DNA of 51,647 nt from Patescibacteria group bacterium (GTDB taxonomy: Bacteria; Patescibacteriota; Minisyncoccia; UBA6257; GWB1-50-10): assembly GCA_040757555.1 (NCBI GenBank), contig JBFLWN010000001.1, forward strand, positions 119,128-170,774. The letters are read 5' to 3'. Under the pieces are notes generated by a model, which worked only from the letters and a program-made list of their open reading frames with translations, ran no database searches and was not told the DNA's origin. The translations under genes were made by a program, and so were the position numbers. The number at the start of each line of letters is the position of its first letter. Position 1 is the first letter of the stretch. Positions 2,635 through 51,647 of this stretch are shown here, one piece after another.

Positions 2635-3690
2635 ATGAAGATTCTCGCTATAGAAACATCGTGTGACGATACTGCAATTGCACTTATAGAGGCGTCCGGC
2701 ACAACGTCCGCACCAAAATTCAAAGTTCTGAAAAGTATCATATCATCGCAAATTGAAGTGCATCGCCCGTGGGGCGGTGTGGTTCCTAACCTCGCAAAAC
2801 GAGAGCACATCAAAAATCTTCCAAAGATTTTTGATAAGTTAAAAATTAAAGGTGAAAAATTAAAAATTGATGCAATCTGTGTCACTGTGGGGCCCGGACT
2901 TGAACCAGCACTTTGGGCGGGAATCACTTTTGCAGAAGAAATATATAAAAAACTGAAAACTGAAAATAAAAAAATGAAGCTTATTGGGATAAATCACCTC
3001 GAGGGACACCTCTACAGTTTTTTGCTTTCGCAAAAAACCAAAACATCAATTTCCAATTCTCAATTTTCAAATAAAACTAAAAATAATTTCCCTGCAATTG
3101 CGCTTATTGTAAGTGGTGGACACACCATTCTTCTTCATATGCAGTCACCAATAAAATGGAAAAAACTTGGGGAGACAAAAGATGATGCGGTGGGAGAATC
3201 GTTTGATAAAGTGGCAAAAATGCTTGGATTTCCTTACCCTGGCGGACCCGAAATACAACGCCTTGCGGAAAAAGGGAATGTAAACGCCATACGATTCCCC
3301 CGTCCAATGATCGGCTCAAAAGATTATAACTTCAGTTATTCGGGGCTTAAAACTTCAGTACTGTATTATCTTCGTGATAATGCAAAAACAAAAAAAGAAG
3401 ATGTGGCTGCAAGTTTTCAAGAAGCGGCACTCGATGTACTCATAAAAAAAACCGAGCGGGCAGCACGTGAATATGGAGTAAAATCAATTTTTCTTTCCGG
3501 TGGTGTTGCGGCAAATAAGGAGCTTCGAAAAAAATTAACAGTGTTAAGTTCAAAATTAAAAATTAATTTTATTGCTCCTCCAATGGACTTCAACACTGAC
3601 AATGCGGTGATGATTGCCGTTGCGGGATATATGAGTATGCTCCGCAAAAAGAACAAAAAACTTATTGCGAACGGAAACATGGGGATATAA
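2635..3690 (+). CDS. tsaD: tRNA t6A37 threonylcarbamoyltransferase TsaD
   Basis: MKILAIETSCDDT start (moved from 2509 in the track); GPGL, NHLEGH, VSGGHT, DDAVGESFDKVA, GGVAAN and TDNAVMIA motifs. Confidence 0.97.
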   Translation: MKILAIETSCDDTAIALIEASGTTSAPKFKVLKSIISSQIEVHRPWGGVVPNLAKREHIKNLPKIFDKLKIKGEKLKIDAICVTVGPGLEPALWAGITFAEEIYKKLKTENKKMKLIGINHLEGHLYSFLLSQKTKTSISNSQFSNKTKNNFPAIALIVSGGHTILLHMQSPIKWKKLGETKDDAVGESFDKVAKMLGFPYPGGPEIQRLAEKGNVNAIRFPRPMIGSKDYNFSYSGLKTSVLYYLRDNAKTKKEDVAASFQEAALDVLIKKTERAAREYGVKSIFLSGGVAANKELRKKLTVLSSKLKINFIAPPMDFNTDNAVMIAVAGYMSMLRKKNKKLIANGNMGI

Positions 3691-3723
3691 CATCAAAATG
3701 CCGTTCGACCTTGTTGTGTTATA
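3686..3723 (-). repeat. 38-bp dyad site, copy 1 (reverse orientation); overlaps the tsaD stop codon
   Basis: Minus strand reads TATAACAC-AACAAGG-TCG-AA-CGG-CATTTTG-ATGTTATA. Confidence 0.85.
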
Positions 3724-10746: not shown

Positions 10747-10784
10747 TATAACATAATATTATCGAACGATATTTTTGTGTTATA
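10747..10784 (+). repeat. 38-bp dyad site, copy 2
   Basis: TATAACAT-AATATTA-TCG-AA-CGA-TATTTTT-GTGTTATA, lying between two terminator hairpins. Confidence 0.85.
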
Positions 10785-15267: not shown

Positions 15268-15416
15268 AAATGTTTAGCGCTAAACATTTTTGTATTAAGA
15301 AATACAAAAACGTAGGTTTCATCGCATTATCGGGTTATTAGGAAAATGTTTAGCGCTAAACATTTTCTTAGATTAAAAACCGAAAGTGTAGGTTTTATCG
15401 CACTATCAGCTTCTTA
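15265..15416. repeat. Two-unit tandem repeat (period 76 bp) with a perfect palindrome
   Basis: AAATGTTTAGCGCTAAACATTT at 15268-15289 and 15344-15365; second block GTAGGTTTYATCGCAYTATC at 15312-15331 and 15388-15407. Confidence 0.9.
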
Positions 15417-24508: not shown

Positions 24509-24546
24509 CATAACACAATACCGCCGAACGGCGATATTGTGTTATA
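24509..24546 (+). repeat. 38-bp dyad site, copy 3
   Basis: CATAACAC-AATACCG-CCG-AA-CGG-CGATATT-GTGTTATA; this copy can also fold as a near-perfect hairpin. Confidence 0.85.
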
Positions 24547-45348: not shown

Positions 45349-46470
45349 TTATTTTAAGGCAAAAGGATTTTTTGCTCCCAAGACTTCAAAATGGAGATGA
45401 CACCCAGTGGTTCCTTGTGTGTTTCCCGAGCTCCCTATAAACGCAATGTTCTTTCCCTGAGAAACAACATCTCCTACTTTTACAATATTTTTTAGTGTGT
45501 GCGCATAACGCGTATGTGTTTTGTTTGGATGTTCTATGAGAACATAATTTCCGTATCCTCCATTCCATGACCCATCGGAAGATTCTTCTATCACTACTCC
45601 ATCTGCTGCTGCATAAATACTACTTCCGCACGTATTCGCTATATCAACTGCATTATATTCGTGTAATTTCCCCCAATTCCACCCCTTCGCAGGAAGTATA
45701 AAATAACCGGTAAGTGTGGCAAGATTTTCCTTTTCTGTTTCTTTTTGTGTAGCGAGCCAGGACCCTTCTTTTGTGTATGGAAGAACTAATTTTGCTCCGG
45801 GCGCTTCAAGAAGTTTTGTATATTCTGGGTTATACTTTTTTATAATTTCCTGACTTGCCCCAAGGCGATCTGAAATTTGTTGTAGTGTATCTCCTTTTTG
45901 TATGACATATAACGACCCGGATGTTGGAAGAATTAATAATTCTTGCCCTGTTTTTATTTTTTTTATATGTGCGTTTGAGGCTTGGAGTGTTTCAAGTGTG
46001 ATTCCAAACTGAGCAGCAACACTCGAGAGGGTGTCTCCTTTTTTCATTTTATATTTTCTAATTCCCTCTCTTGCAGAAACGTCACCAATAAGTGCGGGGG
46101 GTACCCCAAAAAAAGAGCTCTCGTCTTTGGAAAGAAAAAGCCCATTGTCACCTTGTTCGTCTTCATAATATGACGCCTGTGCAGTTGAAATAGTACCCAA
46201 TTCACTACCAAGTGATCCGGCGGGCCCTCCAATTCCCCACATATCATATTTTTTGTATGCCGAAAACCATGATCCATCTCCCAAAAAAAGGGTTGTGGAA
46301 CACCCTACGGCAACAAGAAAAAACAACGACCAGAGAGTAGCCGTATTTGAAAAACCCCTTAAAAAAGGCTTTATATGTGAAATAAACGTACTTATAAGGC
46401 CATTATAGCAAAAAACCATAAAAAGGGAACTAAAAAGAAAAAATATACTTATCAACAGAAAATATAACAT
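45349..46470 (-). CDS. LysM + M23 family peptidase (start uncertain)
   Basis: Two LysM repeats (KKGDTLSSVA, QKGDTLQQIS), HEYNAVD, GYGNYV, YAH and GCHLHFEV. Confidence 0.85.
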   Translation of the reverse strand: MLYFLLISIFFLFSSLFMVFCYNGLISTFISHIKPFLRGFSNTATLWSLFFLVAVGCSTTLFLGDGSWFSAYKKYDMWGIGGPAGSLGSELGTISTAQASYYEDEQGDNGLFLSKDESSFFGVPPALIGDVSAREGIRKYKMKKGDTLSSVAAQFGITLETLQASNAHIKKIKTGQELLILPTSGSLYVIQKGDTLQQISDRLGASQEIIKKYNPEYTKLLEAPGAKLVLPYTKEGSWLATQKETEKENLATLTGYFILPAKGWNWGKLHEYNAVDIANTCGSSIYAAADGVVIEESSDGSWNGGYGNYVLIEHPNKTHTRYAHTLKNIVKVGDVVSQGKNIAFIGSSGNTQGTTGCHLHFEVLGAKNPFALK

Positions 46471-46500
46471 ATAACTATCGACCGACTTATAAATGTTATA
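46463..46500 (+). repeat. 38-bp dyad site, copy 4; contains the PaaX-like start codon
   Basis: TATAACAT-ATAACTA-TCG-AC-CGA-CTTATAA-ATGTTATA. Confidence 0.85.
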
Positions 46501-46990
46501 TACTAAACACATCGTGGAACGAATCCAAAATAATTCTCTTTCTACAACCATTCTGAATACCATCTCAAAGACAACGGGAGGGATTTTGTTTTCCGATGTG
46601 TGTAGAGAACACAACGTACAAGAAGAAAACATTCGCGTCACACTCTGGAGACTTGAAAAGCGTGGAATGATAGAAAAAAGGGAAAATAAATATGTTTTAT
46701 CTTCTCTCGGAAAAGATTTTTTTGAAAAAAGAAAACAGCCGAAAAAGTGGGATGGAAAATGGAGAATGATTATATTCGATATCCCCGAATCGGAGCGCAC
46801 AAATCGCATTTGGCTTCGCACACAACTTCTTCGAGCGGAATATCAATCGCTACAACGAAGCATCTACCTCGGAAAAAACCCTCTTCCGGAATTTCTTTTT
46901 GATGAGATAAAAAATCGGAAAATGCTTTCATACATACGAATAATTGTGGCCCAAAACATAATAAAAAATTCGCTTCTCTCTGAGAAATAA
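46493..46990 (+). CDS. PaaX-like protein (winged HTH + Cas2/VapD-like ferredoxin domain)
   Basis: IRVTLWRLEKRGMIE (wHTH), WDGKWRMIIFDIPE and LQRSIYL. Confidence 0.78.
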   Translation: MLYTKHIVERIQNNSLSTTILNTISKTTGGILFSDVCREHNVQEENIRVTLWRLEKRGMIEKRENKYVLSSLGKDFFEKRKQPKKWDGKWRMIIFDIPESERTNRIWLRTQLLRAEYQSLQRSIYLGKNPLPEFLFDEIKNRKMLSYIRIIVAQNIIKNSLLSEK

Positions 46991-46997
46991 TAACTAT

Positions 46998-47807
46998 ATG
47001 GGACAAAAACTAGGACAACATTTTTTAAAAAACAAAAAAATACTCCACACAATAGCAGGGATAGTTGAATCGCGTGCGGACGAAACCCTGATTGAGGTGG
47101 GCCCGGGACACGGAGAATTAACCGAAAAACTCAAGACACAAAACGCAAAATGCAAAATTATTGCAATAGAAAAGGACAAAATACTTGCCGAACAATTGGA
47201 GAAAAAATTTGAAAAAGATAAAAATATAAAAATTATGTGCGGTGATGCGCTTTTACTACTTCCTGAAATTGTTAAAAAAATTCGTGGAAATTATATCGTT
47301 GTTGGAAACATTCCTTACTACATCACTGGATATTTATTTCGAACAATCCAAGAATTAAAAAAAAGACCAACTCGTACAGTGGTGATGATACAAAAAGAAG
47401 TTGCAGAACGCATTGTGAAAAAATCGCCCCAGATGAATTTACTCGCGGCAAGTGTTCAATATTGGGCTGATCCAAAAATTATAATGAACGTATCAAAAAA
47501 AGAATTTTCCCCACAACCAAAAATCGATTCCGCGGTGATTGAACTTTATACAAAAAAAACACACCTGAAAAACAATGGGGGAGTAGAAAAAAAATATTAC
47601 AATACACTCAATATATTATTCAAACAACCGAGAAAAACAATTAAAAATAATATAACACTATCATACCGAACGGCTAGAGGGTGTAATACCCAAGAAAAGG
47701 TGGTGTTAAAACAAATAGAAGAAATTAGTGTTCATGCCGAGGGAAGACCACAAGATTTGAGAATTGAGGAAATAAAAAAAATCGCACAAATTATACACCC
47801 CAAATAA
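46998..47807 (+). CDS. rsmA: 16S rRNA dimethyltransferase RsmA/KsgA
   Basis: LGQHFL, EVGPGHG, GNIPYYIT, QKEVAER and PQPKIDSAV. Confidence 0.95.
   Translation: MGQKLGQHFLKNKKILHTIAGIVESRADETLIEVGPGHGELTEKLKTQNAKCKIIAIEKDKILAEQLEKKFEKDKNIKIMCGDALLLLPEIVKKIRGNYIVVGNIPYYITGYLFRTIQELKKRPTRTVVMIQKEVAERIVKKSPQMNLLAASVQYWADPKIIMNVSKKEFSPQPKIDSAVIELYTKKTHLKNNGGVEKKYYNTLNILFKQPRKTIKNNITLSYRTARGCNTQEKVVLKQIEEISVHAEGRPQDLRIEEIKKIAQIIHPK
47651..47688 (+). repeat. 38-bp dyad site, copy 5; in frame inside rsmA
   Basis: TATAACAC-TATCATA-CCG-AA-CGG-CTAGAGG-GTGTAATA. Confidence 0.8.
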
Positions 47808-47810
47808 CAT

Positions 47811-48323
47811 ATGAAAAAAAATATTTATATTTCTATATCCACACTTCTCATTGTTGTGTCCCTGTTTTTTCCAGTGAAAGATGTACGCGCAGAAGTTTCT
47901 ATAATAAAACCATTTGGAGGAAAGGTGATCACATGGCTTCCTTCAGCTCCCGGATGCATAGCATTTACTACCGCCGTCTCTCTTGCGACGTTTGGCACAA
48001 TAAATCCGACCGTCGAGGAACTGGTTGTTGCCCCACCAAACGGAGGAACGTTTGGTATTCTTCGAGTAAATCTCCTTCCGGTACCCCCAACAAAAATTTA
48101 TTCATACAATCAATATCAACTTCCTGGAACAAATGTACTTGGTTCTTCGATTAACGTCTGTGATGCGTGTGAGGCTCTCGATAAACTTCCGTTTCTCAAA
48201 GATATATGTAAAACGGGAGTTTTAAAAAGCATTATTGGAACAATTTGTGATTTTGTTGGGGGAGCATGTCCGGTAACAAATTTAATTTATAAAATGGGAA
48301 CCGCAATAAAACCATCGTTATAA
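47811..48323 (+). CDS. Hypothetical secreted Cys-rich protein
   Basis: Signal peptide (VRA|E), PFGGKV and six Cys. Confidence 0.7.
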   Translation: MKKNIYISISTLLIVVSLFFPVKDVRAEVSIIKPFGGKVITWLPSAPGCIAFTTAVSLATFGTINPTVEELVVAPPNGGTFGILRVNLLPVPPTKIYSYNQYQLPGTNVLGSSINVCDACEALDKLPFLKDICKTGVLKSIIGTICDFVGGACPVTNLIYKMGTAIKPSL

Positions 48324-48332
48324 TTTTATATC

Positions 48333-49079
48333 ATGTCTTTTCTTAAAAAATATAAAAAAACGTTTTCTCTTCTTATTATTATTGGAGCGCTAGTGATATC
48401 GTTTTTTATCGTACGCGAAGAAAAAAAACCAGACTATCTTTTTCAGGTTGTAGAAAATGGACAACTAGGAACCTCAACGCTTAAAAACTTAAACACATTC
48501 AACCTTCCTAACCTCACCAACGAACTCACTAACCAATCAATCCAAAAACTTATTGAAGAAAATGAAAAAAGAGGAACAAAAACAATCGAAACAGCAAAAA
48601 CAATTCCAAACAAAGAAGAAACCCAAAAAATTATTGATGAAATAATTGACAACGAATTAAAATCGGAATTTGTTGATCCACAGACAATTCAGACGTTAAA
48701 AGATGATTCAAAAGAAACCCAGGAAGTATATCTCCTTGTTATTAACAACATAATAAATGGGGTCTCAATAAACACCACACAAGAAACAACAAAAAGCACA
48801 CAAATTTCTGAATATTTTTCTAAAACCGCATCGGCGTTTGCGAGCGCGGAAGAGGTATTGAGAGTAATGAATGTTCCGCGATCGTGGGTTGATATCCACG
48901 CGAAACTTATCGGATTTTTTGCTGCTCAAAAAAACATCTATTCTTCTTTGGCATTAGCAAGCCAAGACCCCCTTCGATTTATGATTGCAATCCAGAGAAT
49001 CGGTAATGAAAGCGAGGGTCGTTTTGAAGCAATTAAGACGGATATAAAGGAGCGAATAAAGAGCGAGGGGTTACTGTAG
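48333..49079 (+). CDS. Hypothetical membrane-anchored helical protein
   Basis: N-terminal TM; VPRSWVDIH segment. Confidence 0.7.
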   Translation: MSFLKKYKKTFSLLIIIGALVISFFIVREEKKPDYLFQVVENGQLGTSTLKNLNTFNLPNLTNELTNQSIQKLIEENEKRGTKTIETAKTIPNKEETQKIIDEIIDNELKSEFVDPQTIQTLKDDSKETQEVYLLVINNIINGVSINTTQETTKSTQISEYFSKTASAFASAEEVLRVMNVPRSWVDIHAKLIGFFAAQKNIYSSLALASQDPLRFMIAIQRIGNESEGRFEAIKTDIKERIKSEGLL

Positions 49080-49109
49080 GGAATTAGTAAATACGATATA
49101 ATAAAAGAA

Positions 49110-50546
49110 ATGGAATTCCTTAAAAAAATATTTGTAATCGGACTTATCGGGACTTTTACTTTTTCTCCTGTGTTTTTTGCACACGCCCAAAGCACATCAA
49201 CCCCGCCTTCGGTATTTGATGGAAAGGGAGATAAAGCCGAAGACCAAGGATTCGAACTTTGTGATAAGGCAGCGAGACTTTCGGTAAGACTTGGAGCAAT
49301 GACCGCGCTGGATCATGTACAAACAGACATATTAAATGGCGGACTTTCTTTTGTGTCTGAACAATTTTCGGGAACAGTGGGAATAAACATAGATTTTGTG
49401 AATTTAAAACAACAGGGTATGCAATATGCATATAATTTTATTTCAAACACACTAAATGATATTTTTGGAAATAAATTAAAAGATGAGGTAAATAAAAAAA
49501 TAGACGACATAAAAGACTCACTTATTGGGAAGGCGACGGGGGCGGTTGAGGATGCTATTTCTCTTGGAGTAAGTCCGATTCCGGTTGCGGAAAAAGGAGA
49601 TCTTTTGGGCCAAACAAAACAACTTGTTGCGGAACAAAAACGACAAGAAGTAATCGCGCAAACACGAAGTAAGTGTGCGGAGCTTTTGAAAAATACCAAC
49701 GAACAAATAAAACGCGCTTTGTTGTATCAGTTTTCTTCGCAGATTACTGATTGGATTACAAGTGGTGAGGCGCCACAATTTGTGAAAGACCCAACCCAGT
49801 TTATAAAAGATACCGCACAACTTGCAGTTGACCGAACAATTTCAAGAATTGCACCACGTCTTTGTACTCCATTTCAACTCTCTATTGTTGCTGAAATTCC
49901 AACAACAAATCGGCAAGCAAATCCATTTTACGAAGAGCTTACTTGTACACTTGATCAAGTAACAGAAAATGTCGAAGCATTTTATAACGATTTCAGAAGT
50001 GGGGGATGGATTTCATATCAAGAAATGTGGAAACCACAAAATAATTATTATGGGGCTTCCATGTTGGTAAACCAAAAAATCCAGGAACAACAAGCAACCG
50101 CAATACAACTCACACAAGAAGATTTACAAAGAGGAAGTGGTTTTCCAAGCCAAACACAATGTACTGAATGGCGACTCTATGTGCCCGCCGATTGCAAATT
50201 AAATTCCCTCCAACACACGTACCAGGATATTCTCCAGGTTCAGGGAAAATGCTTCGCCTCGACAGAAGAAATTCGTGGACCAACCGACGATGGAAAAGCA
50301 CCATCAATACAAGCAGGGGCTCCAGAAGGATCAAAGTGGCAATGTCAAAAAACCGAAATTACAAACCCAGGTACAGTCACCGCTGGTTTGAGTCAAAAAG
50401 CACAACAAGTAGAACTTGATCAGCTTGCTGCCGCAAACGATATAGAGAATTTCTTGGACAACATTACCGACGCCATCGTAAACAAACTCGTAAAATCGGG
50501 TGTGGGTGGACTACAAAAAATATTGAAGGGATTGCCTGGTTTATAA
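49110..50546 (+). CDS. Hypothetical secreted protein (CPR envelope cluster)
   Basis: Signal peptide (AHA|Q), Cys pairs, GGWISY and NNYYG; directly upstream of the VirB6-like gene. Confidence 0.72.
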   Translation: MEFLKKIFVIGLIGTFTFSPVFFAHAQSTSTPPSVFDGKGDKAEDQGFELCDKAARLSVRLGAMTALDHVQTDILNGGLSFVSEQFSGTVGINIDFVNLKQQGMQYAYNFISNTLNDIFGNKLKDEVNKKIDDIKDSLIGKATGAVEDAISLGVSPIPVAEKGDLLGQTKQLVAEQKRQEVIAQTRSKCAELLKNTNEQIKRALLYQFSSQITDWITSGEAPQFVKDPTQFIKDTAQLAVDRTISRIAPRLCTPFQLSIVAEIPTTNRQANPFYEELTCTLDQVTENVEAFYNDFRSGGWISYQEMWKPQNNYYGASMLVNQKIQEQQATAIQLTQEDLQRGSGFPSQTQCTEWRLYVPADCKLNSLQHTYQDILQVQGKCFASTEEIRGPTDDGKAPSIQAGAPEGSKWQCQKTEITNPGTVTAGLSQKAQQVELDQLAAANDIENFLDNITDAIVNKLVKSGVGGLQKILKGLPGL

Positions 50547-50550
50547 AAAA

Positions 50551-51647
50551 ATGAAAAAGAAAACACTATTATCATTCTTGTTTCTTATCATCGCTTTTTC
50601 TGGCGTATTTATGGTTGCAAAAAATGTATCTGCTATTGAACTTGGGCCGTTTATGATACCAAACCTTATTGAGGATATAACAGGATTTAATCCATCAAAA
50701 TTTCTTGGAAACGTTGCAACGGATTGGGTTATTGTTCCTGCGGTTAAGGCATTACTATATGTAGTTGGTGCAATCGCTGCATTCTTGTTTTGGATAGGAG
50801 CACAACTTATTGCGTTTTTCATGTCACTTAATATGGCAATTTTCGAAATGCCACTTGTCGATCTCGGGTGGAGAATTGTTCGTGATATCGCAAACCTTGG
50901 ATTTGTGCTTGCAATTATTATTATCGCAATCGCAATAATTGTGCGATACGAGGAATATGGAACAAAAAAACTACTCCCAAAACTTATTGCCGCTGCAATT
51001 TTGGTAAATTTCAGTTTAACCATTGGAGCGGTTTTTATTGATTTTTCGCACACCCTCACCAATTTCTTTATCTCAAAATCTTCTAGCGGGGGGGATGCAT
51101 TTGGTTTGGTAACAAACCTGGCAAATGGTTTTAATGTACAAAAACTTCTTCAACAAAAAATTGAAGATGGAGGAAGTGATCCAAACCTCATGAATAGTTA
51201 TGAGGGAACCATCACAAAGGGAATAGCTGCGATTATTAGTTTGTTTGCCGCTGCATTATTTACATTTATCTCCGCTCTGACTTTATTGGGAATTGCAATT
51301 ATGCTTCTGGTGCGTTTCATTTATCTTTCCGTGCTTCTTCTTGTTTCTCCTATTATTTATCTCTTTTGGGTTATTCCTGACACACAATCGGTGTGGAAAA
51401 GTTGGTGGAATAGTTTTTTAAAGTGGGTGTTTAACGCTCCCATTCTTACTTCATTTCTCTACCTCACGGTAATATCAACAAAAGCCCTGGGAGATTGGGG
51501 AAAGGGATTCGCCGGTGCGGCCGGATCAAAGATTTACGACAGCGCATCGCTCACTCCAGAAATTCTCATTATTGTCGGAAATGCACTTGTAATGACTGGA
51601 CTTCTTATTGGATCGCTTATGATAGCAAACAGCCTTGGTATCGCGGG
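50551..51647 (+). CDS. VirB6/TrbL-like multi-pass membrane protein, truncated by the right window edge
   Basis: Not in the track because no stop falls in the window. Translated by hand: MKKKTLLSFL...GWRIVRDIANLGF...LLPKLIAAAILVNFS...LLVRFIYL...WKSWWNSFLKWVF. Confidence 0.75.
   Translation, partial: MKKKTLLSFLFLIIAFSGVFMVAKNVSAIELGPFMIPNLIEDITGFNPSKFLGNVATDWVIVPAVKALLYVVGAIAAFLFWIGAQLIAFFMSLNMAIFEMPLVDLGWRIVRDIANLGFVLAIIIIAIAIIVRYEEYGTKKLLPKLIAAAILVNFSLTIGAVFIDFSHTLTNFFISKSSSGGDAFGLVTNLANGFNVQKLLQQKIEDGGSDPNLMNSYEGTITKGIAAIISLFAAALFTFISALTLLGIAIMLLVRFIYLSVLLLVSPIIYLFWVIPDTQSVWKSWWNSFLKWVFNAPILTSFLYLTVISTKALGDWGKGFAGAAGSKIYDSASLTPEILIIVGNALVMTGLLIGSLMIANSLGIA

Follow-up and report, generated by a model that had tools for sequence, protein, structure and literature searches.

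A short PaaX-type protein of Patescibacteria and its probable partner, a family of 38-bp palindromic sites placed beside its gene

PaaX, the phenylacetyl-CoA-responsive repressor of Escherichia coli and Pseudomonas (PDB 8a39, 3l09), is a protein of about 300-316 aa in which an N-terminal winged helix is followed by a Cas2-like dimerization domain (PF20803). It represses its own promoter and binds an operator, TGATTC(N27)GAATCA, whose two inverted half-sites stand far apart and span about 39 bp together (PMC9493321). Here we present a description of a short PaaX-like gene (46493..46990, + strand) and of the 38-bp dyad site at its 5' end (46463..46500, not assigned to a strand; TATAACATATAACTATCGACCGACTTATAAATGTTATA), which are located in a stretch of 51,647 nucleotides from Patescibacteria group bacterium (GenBank assembly GCA_040757555.1, contig JBFLWN010000001.1, positions 119,128 to 170,774), hereafter called the window, together with the further copies of the site and a comparison with homologous loci. 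The comparison strongly supports the protein as the cognate partner of the 38-bp family.

Apart from PaaX, the closest described systems are the repetitive extragenic palindromes with their associated tyrosine transposases (REP/RAYT, TnpA_REP), Cas2 with the CRISPR repeats, the Lrp/AsnC (feast/famine) proteins, and the crossover sites of resolvase-type serine recombinases, which are treated further below. As in REP/RAYT, the gene is flanked by its own palindrome, further copies lie outside genes and mostly after gene ends, and different paralogues pair with different repeat families. The repeats themselves differ, being 38-bp dyads with sequence-conserved boxes here and short GC-rich hairpins with a GTAG head there, and the sites described here have a low density and positions conserved between species. 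With Cas2 the window protein shares the ferredoxin fold and the motif F-D-[IV]-P ... Q-x-S-V, as well as weak model and structure matches, and the cognate repeat is likewise about 38 bp long and partly palindromic. Unlike in CRISPR systems, however, the domain is fused to a winged helix, the Cas2 scores stay below the cut-offs, and the window contains no array and no Cas1: a repeat search of the window yielded no repeat-spacer array, and the neighboring genes are unrelated. The Lrp/AsnC proteins, which are among the fold matches, also join a winged helix to a beta-alpha-beta-beta-alpha-beta oligomerization domain and act as global or architectural DNA binders, but the TM-scores are low (0.25-0.29), and they are neither related to the window protein in sequence nor similar in the architecture of their sites. 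A literature search covering PaaX with Cas2, palindromes of Patescibacteria and intergenic repeats of the candidate phyla radiation (CPR) found no description of a PaaX-like gene paired with a palindrome, and the pair of protein and DNA site has very probably not been described before.

The dyad at the gene reads TATAACAT-ATAACTAT-CGACCG-ACTTATAA-ATGTTATA. Scanning the window for TATAACAY-N22-RTGTTATA detected five copies with at most one mismatch each, starting at 3686, 10747, 24509, 46463 and 47651, all of the form TATAACAY-N8-CGNNCG-N8-RTGTTATA and all with CGNNCG exactly on the dyad axis, whereas 30 dinucleotide-type shuffles of the window yielded 0.0 copies. The dispersed family assumed in the original prediction, which was made from the window sequence alone, is thus real. 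Its density is low, with five copies in 51.6 kb or about one site per 10 kb, and the second copy near the gene lies 661 nt downstream of it, inside rsmA. The 8-nt interiors of the five window copies are mostly not self-complementary, which argues for a protein site with three read blocks and not for a hairpin. Other known palindromic elements were also considered: the LexA-like motifs of Bacteroidetes and Patescibacteria (GGA-N5-TCC, CTAA-N5-TTAG) are unrelated, and identities as NrdR, BirA, parS, dif or DnaA-box sites were dropped because half-site sequence or geometry did not fit.

The gene order M23 peptidase gene, PaaX-like gene, rsmA is shared by the loci of orthologues with 96%, 75%, 58%, 52% and 46% identity, and in all of them the dyad lies just 5' of the PaaX-like gene. 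This 5' site is kept in the comparison loci L001, L002, L003, L103, L096 and L089, and its right half, CGACTTATAAATGTTATA, is invariant in five lineages. The bare DNA pattern was scanned in one genome per species (GTDB), where 97 stretches matched, mostly in metagenome-assembled genomes (MAGs) of Patescibacteria with several copies each. A profile of the protein detected a homologue of the family in 16 of these DNA-selected loci, and in 14 of the 16 it was located directly beside a site. Usually, the first site is located at the start of the gene or shortly ahead of it (-24 to +52 nt) and another one at the stop (-4 to +71 nt). When all 611 predicted genes of the DNA-selected loci were clustered without bias, the PaaX-like family was the only one strongly enriched beside the sites (13 of 15 members versus 100 of 596 other genes, Fisher p = 1.2e-8); the next-ranking families had three site-adjacent members each. 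Regarding the 16 MAGs with at least two sites, 11 show the gene next to a site.

A second set of loci was selected by protein homology and comprised 80 metagenome loci with 73 distinct genes. Palindromes were scored here if they measured 38 bp, had at least 15 of 19 pairs and lay within -45 to +120 nt of start or stop. They were found at the start of 34 of 69 genes and at the stop of 39 of 67, and the arrangement by which RAYT genes are known, palindromes at both ends, occurs family-wide even at this strict threshold (20 of 63 genes). The background elsewhere in the same loci was 0.035 palindromes per kb, and shuffles gave 0. The boxes are lineage-specific (TGTAACAT, TATAGCAC, TATTACAC, ATACACT.., TTATACCC.. 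and GCACTAAT..), and the centers vary too (CGATCG, CGGCCG, CTATAG, CCATGG and CATATG). Between the two copies flanking one gene the outer boxes are 74% identical, as compared with 31% between loci. Similar recognition helices accompany similar boxes, two paralogues in one MAG each stand beside a different palindrome, and long relatives that bear the PaaX_C domain mostly lack such flanking palindromes. The original prediction had named the protein as a candidate cognate of the 38-bp family and had suggested that the 5' flanks of homologues be inspected; these flanks do carry a site, usually matched by another one at the 3' end, and the box changes with the protein lineage. Linkage and co-variation stand on the two sets of loci and on the orthologues, whereas binding itself is inferred. 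Taken from sequence comparisons, the linkage of gene and site, the co-variation of the site with the protein lineage and the conserved positions of the sites, to which we return below, are established.

The protein was also expected to combine a winged helix with a Cas2-like domain in the manner of PaaX, and domain and structure searches agree with this. The open reading frame (ORF) of 165 aa matches PaaX_M (PF20803) at aa 84-155 with 60.6 bits (cut-off 24), with weak winged-helix and Cas2 matches besides. The AlphaFold model (pLDDT 79.6) shows a winged helix (helices within residues 16-79) followed by a beta-alpha-beta-beta-alpha-beta domain (residues 90-153). Foldseek against the PDB placed E. 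coli PaaX (8a39) and Rv0674 (3kfw) on top, followed by Lrp/AsnC proteins and Cas2; a profile search of the PDB sequences likewise ranked E. coli PaaX (8a39) and Rv0674 first. PaaX thus provides the best profile and fold matches, but the window protein is not PaaX proper: the TIGR02277 equivalog scored 28.7 bits against a cut-off of 264.55, no PaaX_C ligand domain was matched by Pfam in the 165 aa, and no paa genes adjoin it in the window or in any of the orthologous loci, where the neighbors are the M23 peptidase gene, rsmA and type IV secretion-like genes. The ORF most likely encodes a minimal PaaX-type DNA binder without the ligand-binding C-terminal domain. It belongs to a large family, with 6,865 clusters (at 50% identity) at E <= 0.001 and 4,977 at E <= 1e-10; the best 150 matches are all short (118-239 aa). 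The window protein itself had no exact counterpart in the assembly index. No homologue was found among the viral contigs of IMG/VR, which hold a single match to the motif.

The start codon of the ORF called for revision. It had been noted that the right box supplies the ATG of the ORF and that the left box supplies a possible minus-strand ATG (46470) for the divergent peptidase gene, and both observations are correct as such: ATG 46493 is the first start of ORF 46493..46990, and ATG 46470 is in frame with the LysM and M23 peptidase ORF. As the two ATGs are only 22 bp apart on opposite strands, they cannot both be real starts. In all seven lineages compared, a start codon (GTG or ATG) occupies one alignment column, whose counterpart in the window is the in-frame GTG 46514; in L003 and L103 the box ATG falls outside the reading frame, and residues 1-14 are disordered in the AlphaFold model. 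The claim that the gene starts inside the dyad, although true of the ORF, is therefore probably untrue of the real gene and an artefact of ORF calling. The true start is probably GTG 46514, giving a protein of 158 aa, and the site most likely ends 13 nt 5' of the real start codon. With this start, what the site covers is not the start codon but the core promoter together with the 5' end. The dyad, which ends 13 nt before the probable start, is conserved in seven lineages, as expected of a PaaX-type operator.

These features suggest, with moderate confidence, that a dimer of the PaaX-type protein binds the dyad as double-stranded DNA, represses its own gene and occupies the other sites as well. 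Each winged helix would read one outer 8-bp box, the box centers being about 30 bp apart, and the Cas2-like dimer core would lie over the conserved CGNNCG center. Binding at its own promoter would block RNA polymerase, since the site lies about 13 nt before the probable start and its right box resembles an extended -10 element (TGTTATA), and might repress the divergent peptidase gene along with its own. The same protein would also bind the remaining copies, most of which directly follow stop codons and one of which is located inside rsmA; our best guess is that they may act as boundary, roadblock, 3'-end or regulatory sites for the neighboring transcription units. The operator geometry of PaaX and the repression of its own promoter (PMC9493321) offer a precedent for reading the dyad as the target of a repressor. 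The site family departs from the PaaX operator in that its center is conserved, that it often forms a full palindrome, and that its members stand on both sides of the gene and are found again at the 3' ends of genes unrelated to it.

The resemblance to promoter elements could be taken at face value, with the dyad as a generic bidirectional promoter or another element of the host that stands beside the gene by chance. Each box does have the look of an extended -10 element (TGnTATA), and a start codon follows 5-13 nt after the end of many sites. Yet a scan for sigma-70-type promoters and terminators around the gene detected nothing at the dyad and did not exceed the number of promoters expected from shuffled sequence, many sites are located between convergent genes or overlap stop codons, the boxes of paralogous lineages are quite different, and the enrichment of sites beside the PaaX-like family is both strong and specific. 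We therefore consider chance proximity of a generic element extremely unlikely.

The dispersed copies of the window were compared with their counterparts in other species. The copy at 3686..3723 lies between convergent genes, where it overlaps the TAA stop of tsaD and precedes a hairpin that resembles an intrinsic terminator; it is kept in L019/L183, L040 and L052, whose TsaD proteins are 61-82% identical. It is the most deeply conserved of the dispersed sites, with interior and center differing between lineages (window 3686-3723; L019:3073-3110; L040:2964-3001; L052:749-786). The copy at 10747..10784 is also located between convergent genes, 60 nt past the stop of a membrane pyrophosphatase gene and with two flanking terminator-like hairpins; orthologous sites occur 63 nt (L183) and 98 nt (L021) past the stop. 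L184, whose pyrophosphatase is 78% identical but whose synteny differs, has no sites, which carries no weight for or against the pairing of gene and site. The copy at 24509..24546 separates two genes that both run on the minus strand, and 16 of its 19 pairs match, so that it is nearly a perfect palindrome. Its orthologues in L016 and L042 are fully palindromic, and two double compensatory changes distinguish them from each other. All three dispersed sites of the window therefore have orthologous positions, with flanking proteins 61-97% identical, and in the orthologous copies boxes and center are conserved whereas the interiors have diverged. We count this as support for selection on the sites. 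The copy at 47651..47688, TATAACAC-TATCATAC-CGAACG-GCTAGAGG-GTGTAATA, is located inside the 3' part of the rsmA coding sequence, where it encodes NITLSYRTARGCN. It occurs at the same place in the six loci that keep the 5' site, with the synonymous positions (ATA, CGA, xCG, TGT) retained. The corresponding peptide, N-I-T-L-x-Y-R-[ST]-x-x-x-C-N (codons ~218-231), belongs to a variable RsmA linker. As six lineages retain the peptide and the synonymous bases alike, the stretch is under protein as well as DNA-site constraint.

The original prediction had gone on to suggest that the protein might propagate the sites, by analogy with REP/RAYT. This part did not survive: site positions are orthologous between species, the density is low and the gene is absent from the viral contigs of IMG/VR. 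Two other hallmarks of REP/RAYT are absent as well, since the protein matched only winged-helix, PaaX_M and, weakly, Cas2 models and no HUH/Y1 (IS200/IS605-like) domain, and the high copy number and turnover of positions are replaced by five copies in the window and three of three dispersed positions kept. Judged from the sequences, the dispersed sites are not mobile, are unlike strand-specific RNA hairpins and are not typical operators.

A related but more specific proposal is that the winged helix guides an active, metal-dependent Cas2-like nuclease to the palindromes, where it would nick or cut the site centers, perhaps as hairpin or cruciform, and maintain, symmetrize or copy them in a REP/RAYT- or homing-like manner. 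What speaks for a catalytic domain is the pattern of residues. Asp96, located in the F-D-I-P motif at the end of the predicted strand 90-95, is kept in 83 of 84 short members and Gln121 in 80 of 84, whereas both are replaced in seven long PaaX_C-bearing relatives (Thr/Ser there) and E. coli PaaX lacks the Asp; we take D96 to be equivalent to the catalytic Asp of Cas2, partly from known Cas2 sequences and partly from the profile alignment. This conservation in the short family suggests that the domain may do more than dimerize. In most lineages the gene is framed by a pair of its own palindromes. This arrangement, self-complementary interiors with compensatory changes, near-identical copies within some MAGs (e.g., JAGLUP) and the REP-like location of the sites outside genes, mostly at 3' ends, fit the proposal as well. 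The weak Cas2 matches count on both sides, in that they exist but remain below the cut-offs (18.8 bits versus 24.5 and 19.4 versus 23.8 for TIGR01573 / PF09827); the C-terminal domain alone gave only chance matches in a single-sequence search of the PDB, and the similarity to Cas2 is visible only with profiles and structure. The remaining evidence is unfavorable to a nuclease that spreads its sites: they have orthologous positions across species and are sparse, synteny of the three genes is kept down to 46% identity, the family is absent from viral contigs, and most sites of the window lineage have lost the symmetry of their interiors but kept their boxes. On balance we regard it as unlikely that the short family is a winged-helix-guided Cas2-family nuclease acting on its own 38-bp palindromes.

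The location of many sites right after stop codons, and of more of them between convergent than between divergent genes, would also suit RNA hairpins at transcript ends which are bound or processed by a Cas2/VapD-like RNase fold, so that the protein sets mRNA 3' ends, affects stability and masks its own start region. Compensatory changes in long stems point in the same direction. Some MAGs (FK3.bin121, H52-bin056) carry a longer palindrome, with AAAAAG added to its left and CTTTTT to its right (L022:3447-3484, L024:7476-7513, L025:6955-6992, L043:7550-7587 and similar sites); the extended palindromes look like a bidirectional intrinsic terminator, and the window lineage lacks the extension. 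These flanks in two lineages favor a transcript-end role. Relative to the direction of transcription, however, mismatches of the G:T type (79) and of the A:C type (65) reveal no RNA-type strand bias and thus no excess of G:U-compatible mismatches on the transcribed strand. The base of the stem is conserved in sequence beyond pairing, interiors are near-random in the window lineage, and the terminator-like hairpins of the genes on either side of the site at 10747 come before the site is reached. Winged helices and the PaaX relatives bind duplex DNA, and Rfam at gathering thresholds found only tRNAs in the window and six loci, with no match to the element. An RNA target is accordingly improbable in our view.

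The same 38-bp motif (TATAACAT..ACG-NN-CGT..ATGTTATA) was also found once per genome in Cytophagales (Pontibacter, Hymenobacter, Spirosoma and Fibrella) and in two MAGs of Chloroflexota, 40-130 nt upstream of a gene for a resolvase-type serine recombinase of about 220 aa that is often located beside a Fic gene (L085:3877-3914, L046:5696-5733, L084:6746-6783, L033:6713-6750, L017:4111-4148 and others). The 38-bp elements might then be crossover sites of a serine recombinase encoded elsewhere, with the PaaX-like protein as an accessory or a passenger. The match to the recombinase-linked sites extends beyond the search pattern, to ACG-NN-CGT and TATAACATTTTA, so that length, outer boxes and center are alike, and the two sites flanking the PaaX-like gene resemble the ends of an invertible or excisable cassette. 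The recombinase-linked sites are single-copy, however, and their central dinucleotide is always asymmetric (0 of 16 symmetric), whereas those of Patescibacteria occur in several copies, go with another protein and are mostly symmetric at the center (palindromic dinucleotide in 69 of 96). A symmetric crossover center would abolish directional recombination. Moreover, neither the window nor about 0.6 Mb of Patescibacteria loci around the sites yielded a recombinase of this kind, and the gene order is stable. Crossover sites are therefore a very improbable explanation.

Several observations nevertheless weigh against a PaaX-type repressor with additional binding sites. The contexts of the dispersed sites are unusual for operators, with 37 between co-directional, 14 between convergent and only four between divergent genes, and many sites fill the whole intergenic gap, a box supplying the TAA stop of the upstream gene. 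Outside the window lineage the interiors are self-complementary (5.5 of 8 pairs), with double compensatory changes between orthologous copies. A dimer reading only boxes and center does not explain this interior symmetry; the sites may pass through a hairpin or cruciform, or template-switch repair may perfect long quasi-palindromes. The TATAACAY box is common to rather different recognition helices, the Cas2-type Asp and Gln that the short family has kept are absent from the ligand-responsive PaaX relatives, and an unrelated serine recombinase family has the motif too.

Regarding the surroundings of the gene, domain matches confirm the predicted placement between a divergent LysM and M23 peptidase gene (45349..46419, - strand) and rsmA, encoding the 16S rRNA dimethyltransferase (46998..47807, + strand; TIGR00755, 190 bits versus a cut-off of 171). 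The dyad of the PaaX-like gene is located in the divergent region with its 22-bp core between the peptidase gene and the PaaX-like gene. The peptidase gene may start at ATG 46419 or, less likely, at the box ATG 46470; gene callers chose differently in L001, L002 and L003, using the equivalent of the box ATG in L003. Four nucleotides to the left of the dyad, a 12-mer (46447-46458; ACTTATCAACAG) is identical in six of seven lineages despite diverged intergenic DNA around it. Its complement, CTGTTGATAAGT, contains TTGATA, and the 12-mer may mark the 5' end of the peptidase transcript on the opposite strand or help to control it. A type IV secretion- or conjugation-like cluster (TrbL, PrgI, TraC-like and VirB4/TraG-like ATPase) is conserved 3' of rsmA (window 47811-51647; L001:11330-20498; L003:11526-20570), and pilin-like genes of type IV secretion systems and a tyrosine recombinase gene are located upstream in the syntenic loci. 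Small genes of the bAvd / 23S-rRNA-IVP family, a kind which accompanies diversity-generating retroelements, occupy differing places in the otherwise syntenic loci (L002:8468-8830; L003:18113-18487), and the window has none at the corresponding place. Another perfect palindrome, of 22 bp (AAATGTTTAGCGCTAAACATTT), occurs in two copies 76 nt apart (15268-15289 and 15344-15365) within an intergenic 76-nt tandem duplication, and the pair may be a paired operator of another regulator.

Patescibacteria and the CPR as a whole have tiny genomes with very few recognizable regulators, and to our knowledge their gene control is almost wholly uncharted. The short PaaX-type proteins form a large uncharacterized family. 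As each gene is framed by its own palindrome with lineage-specific boxes, the genome sequence itself reveals the DNA partner. They provide ready pairs of protein and site for binding assays and for studies of the specificity code, and they allow the mapping of a first regulon or set of boundary elements in these organisms. As the signature Asp of Cas2 is kept in the short family and lost in the ligand-sensing PaaX, Cas2-like action on palindromic repeats outside CRISPR becomes testable. If the unlikely reading as a nuclease were true, a Cas2-like enzyme and its repeat would form a self-contained system that is widespread in the CPR and mechanistically parallel to REP/RAYT, with possible implications for the origin of the partnership between Cas2 and palindromic repeats.

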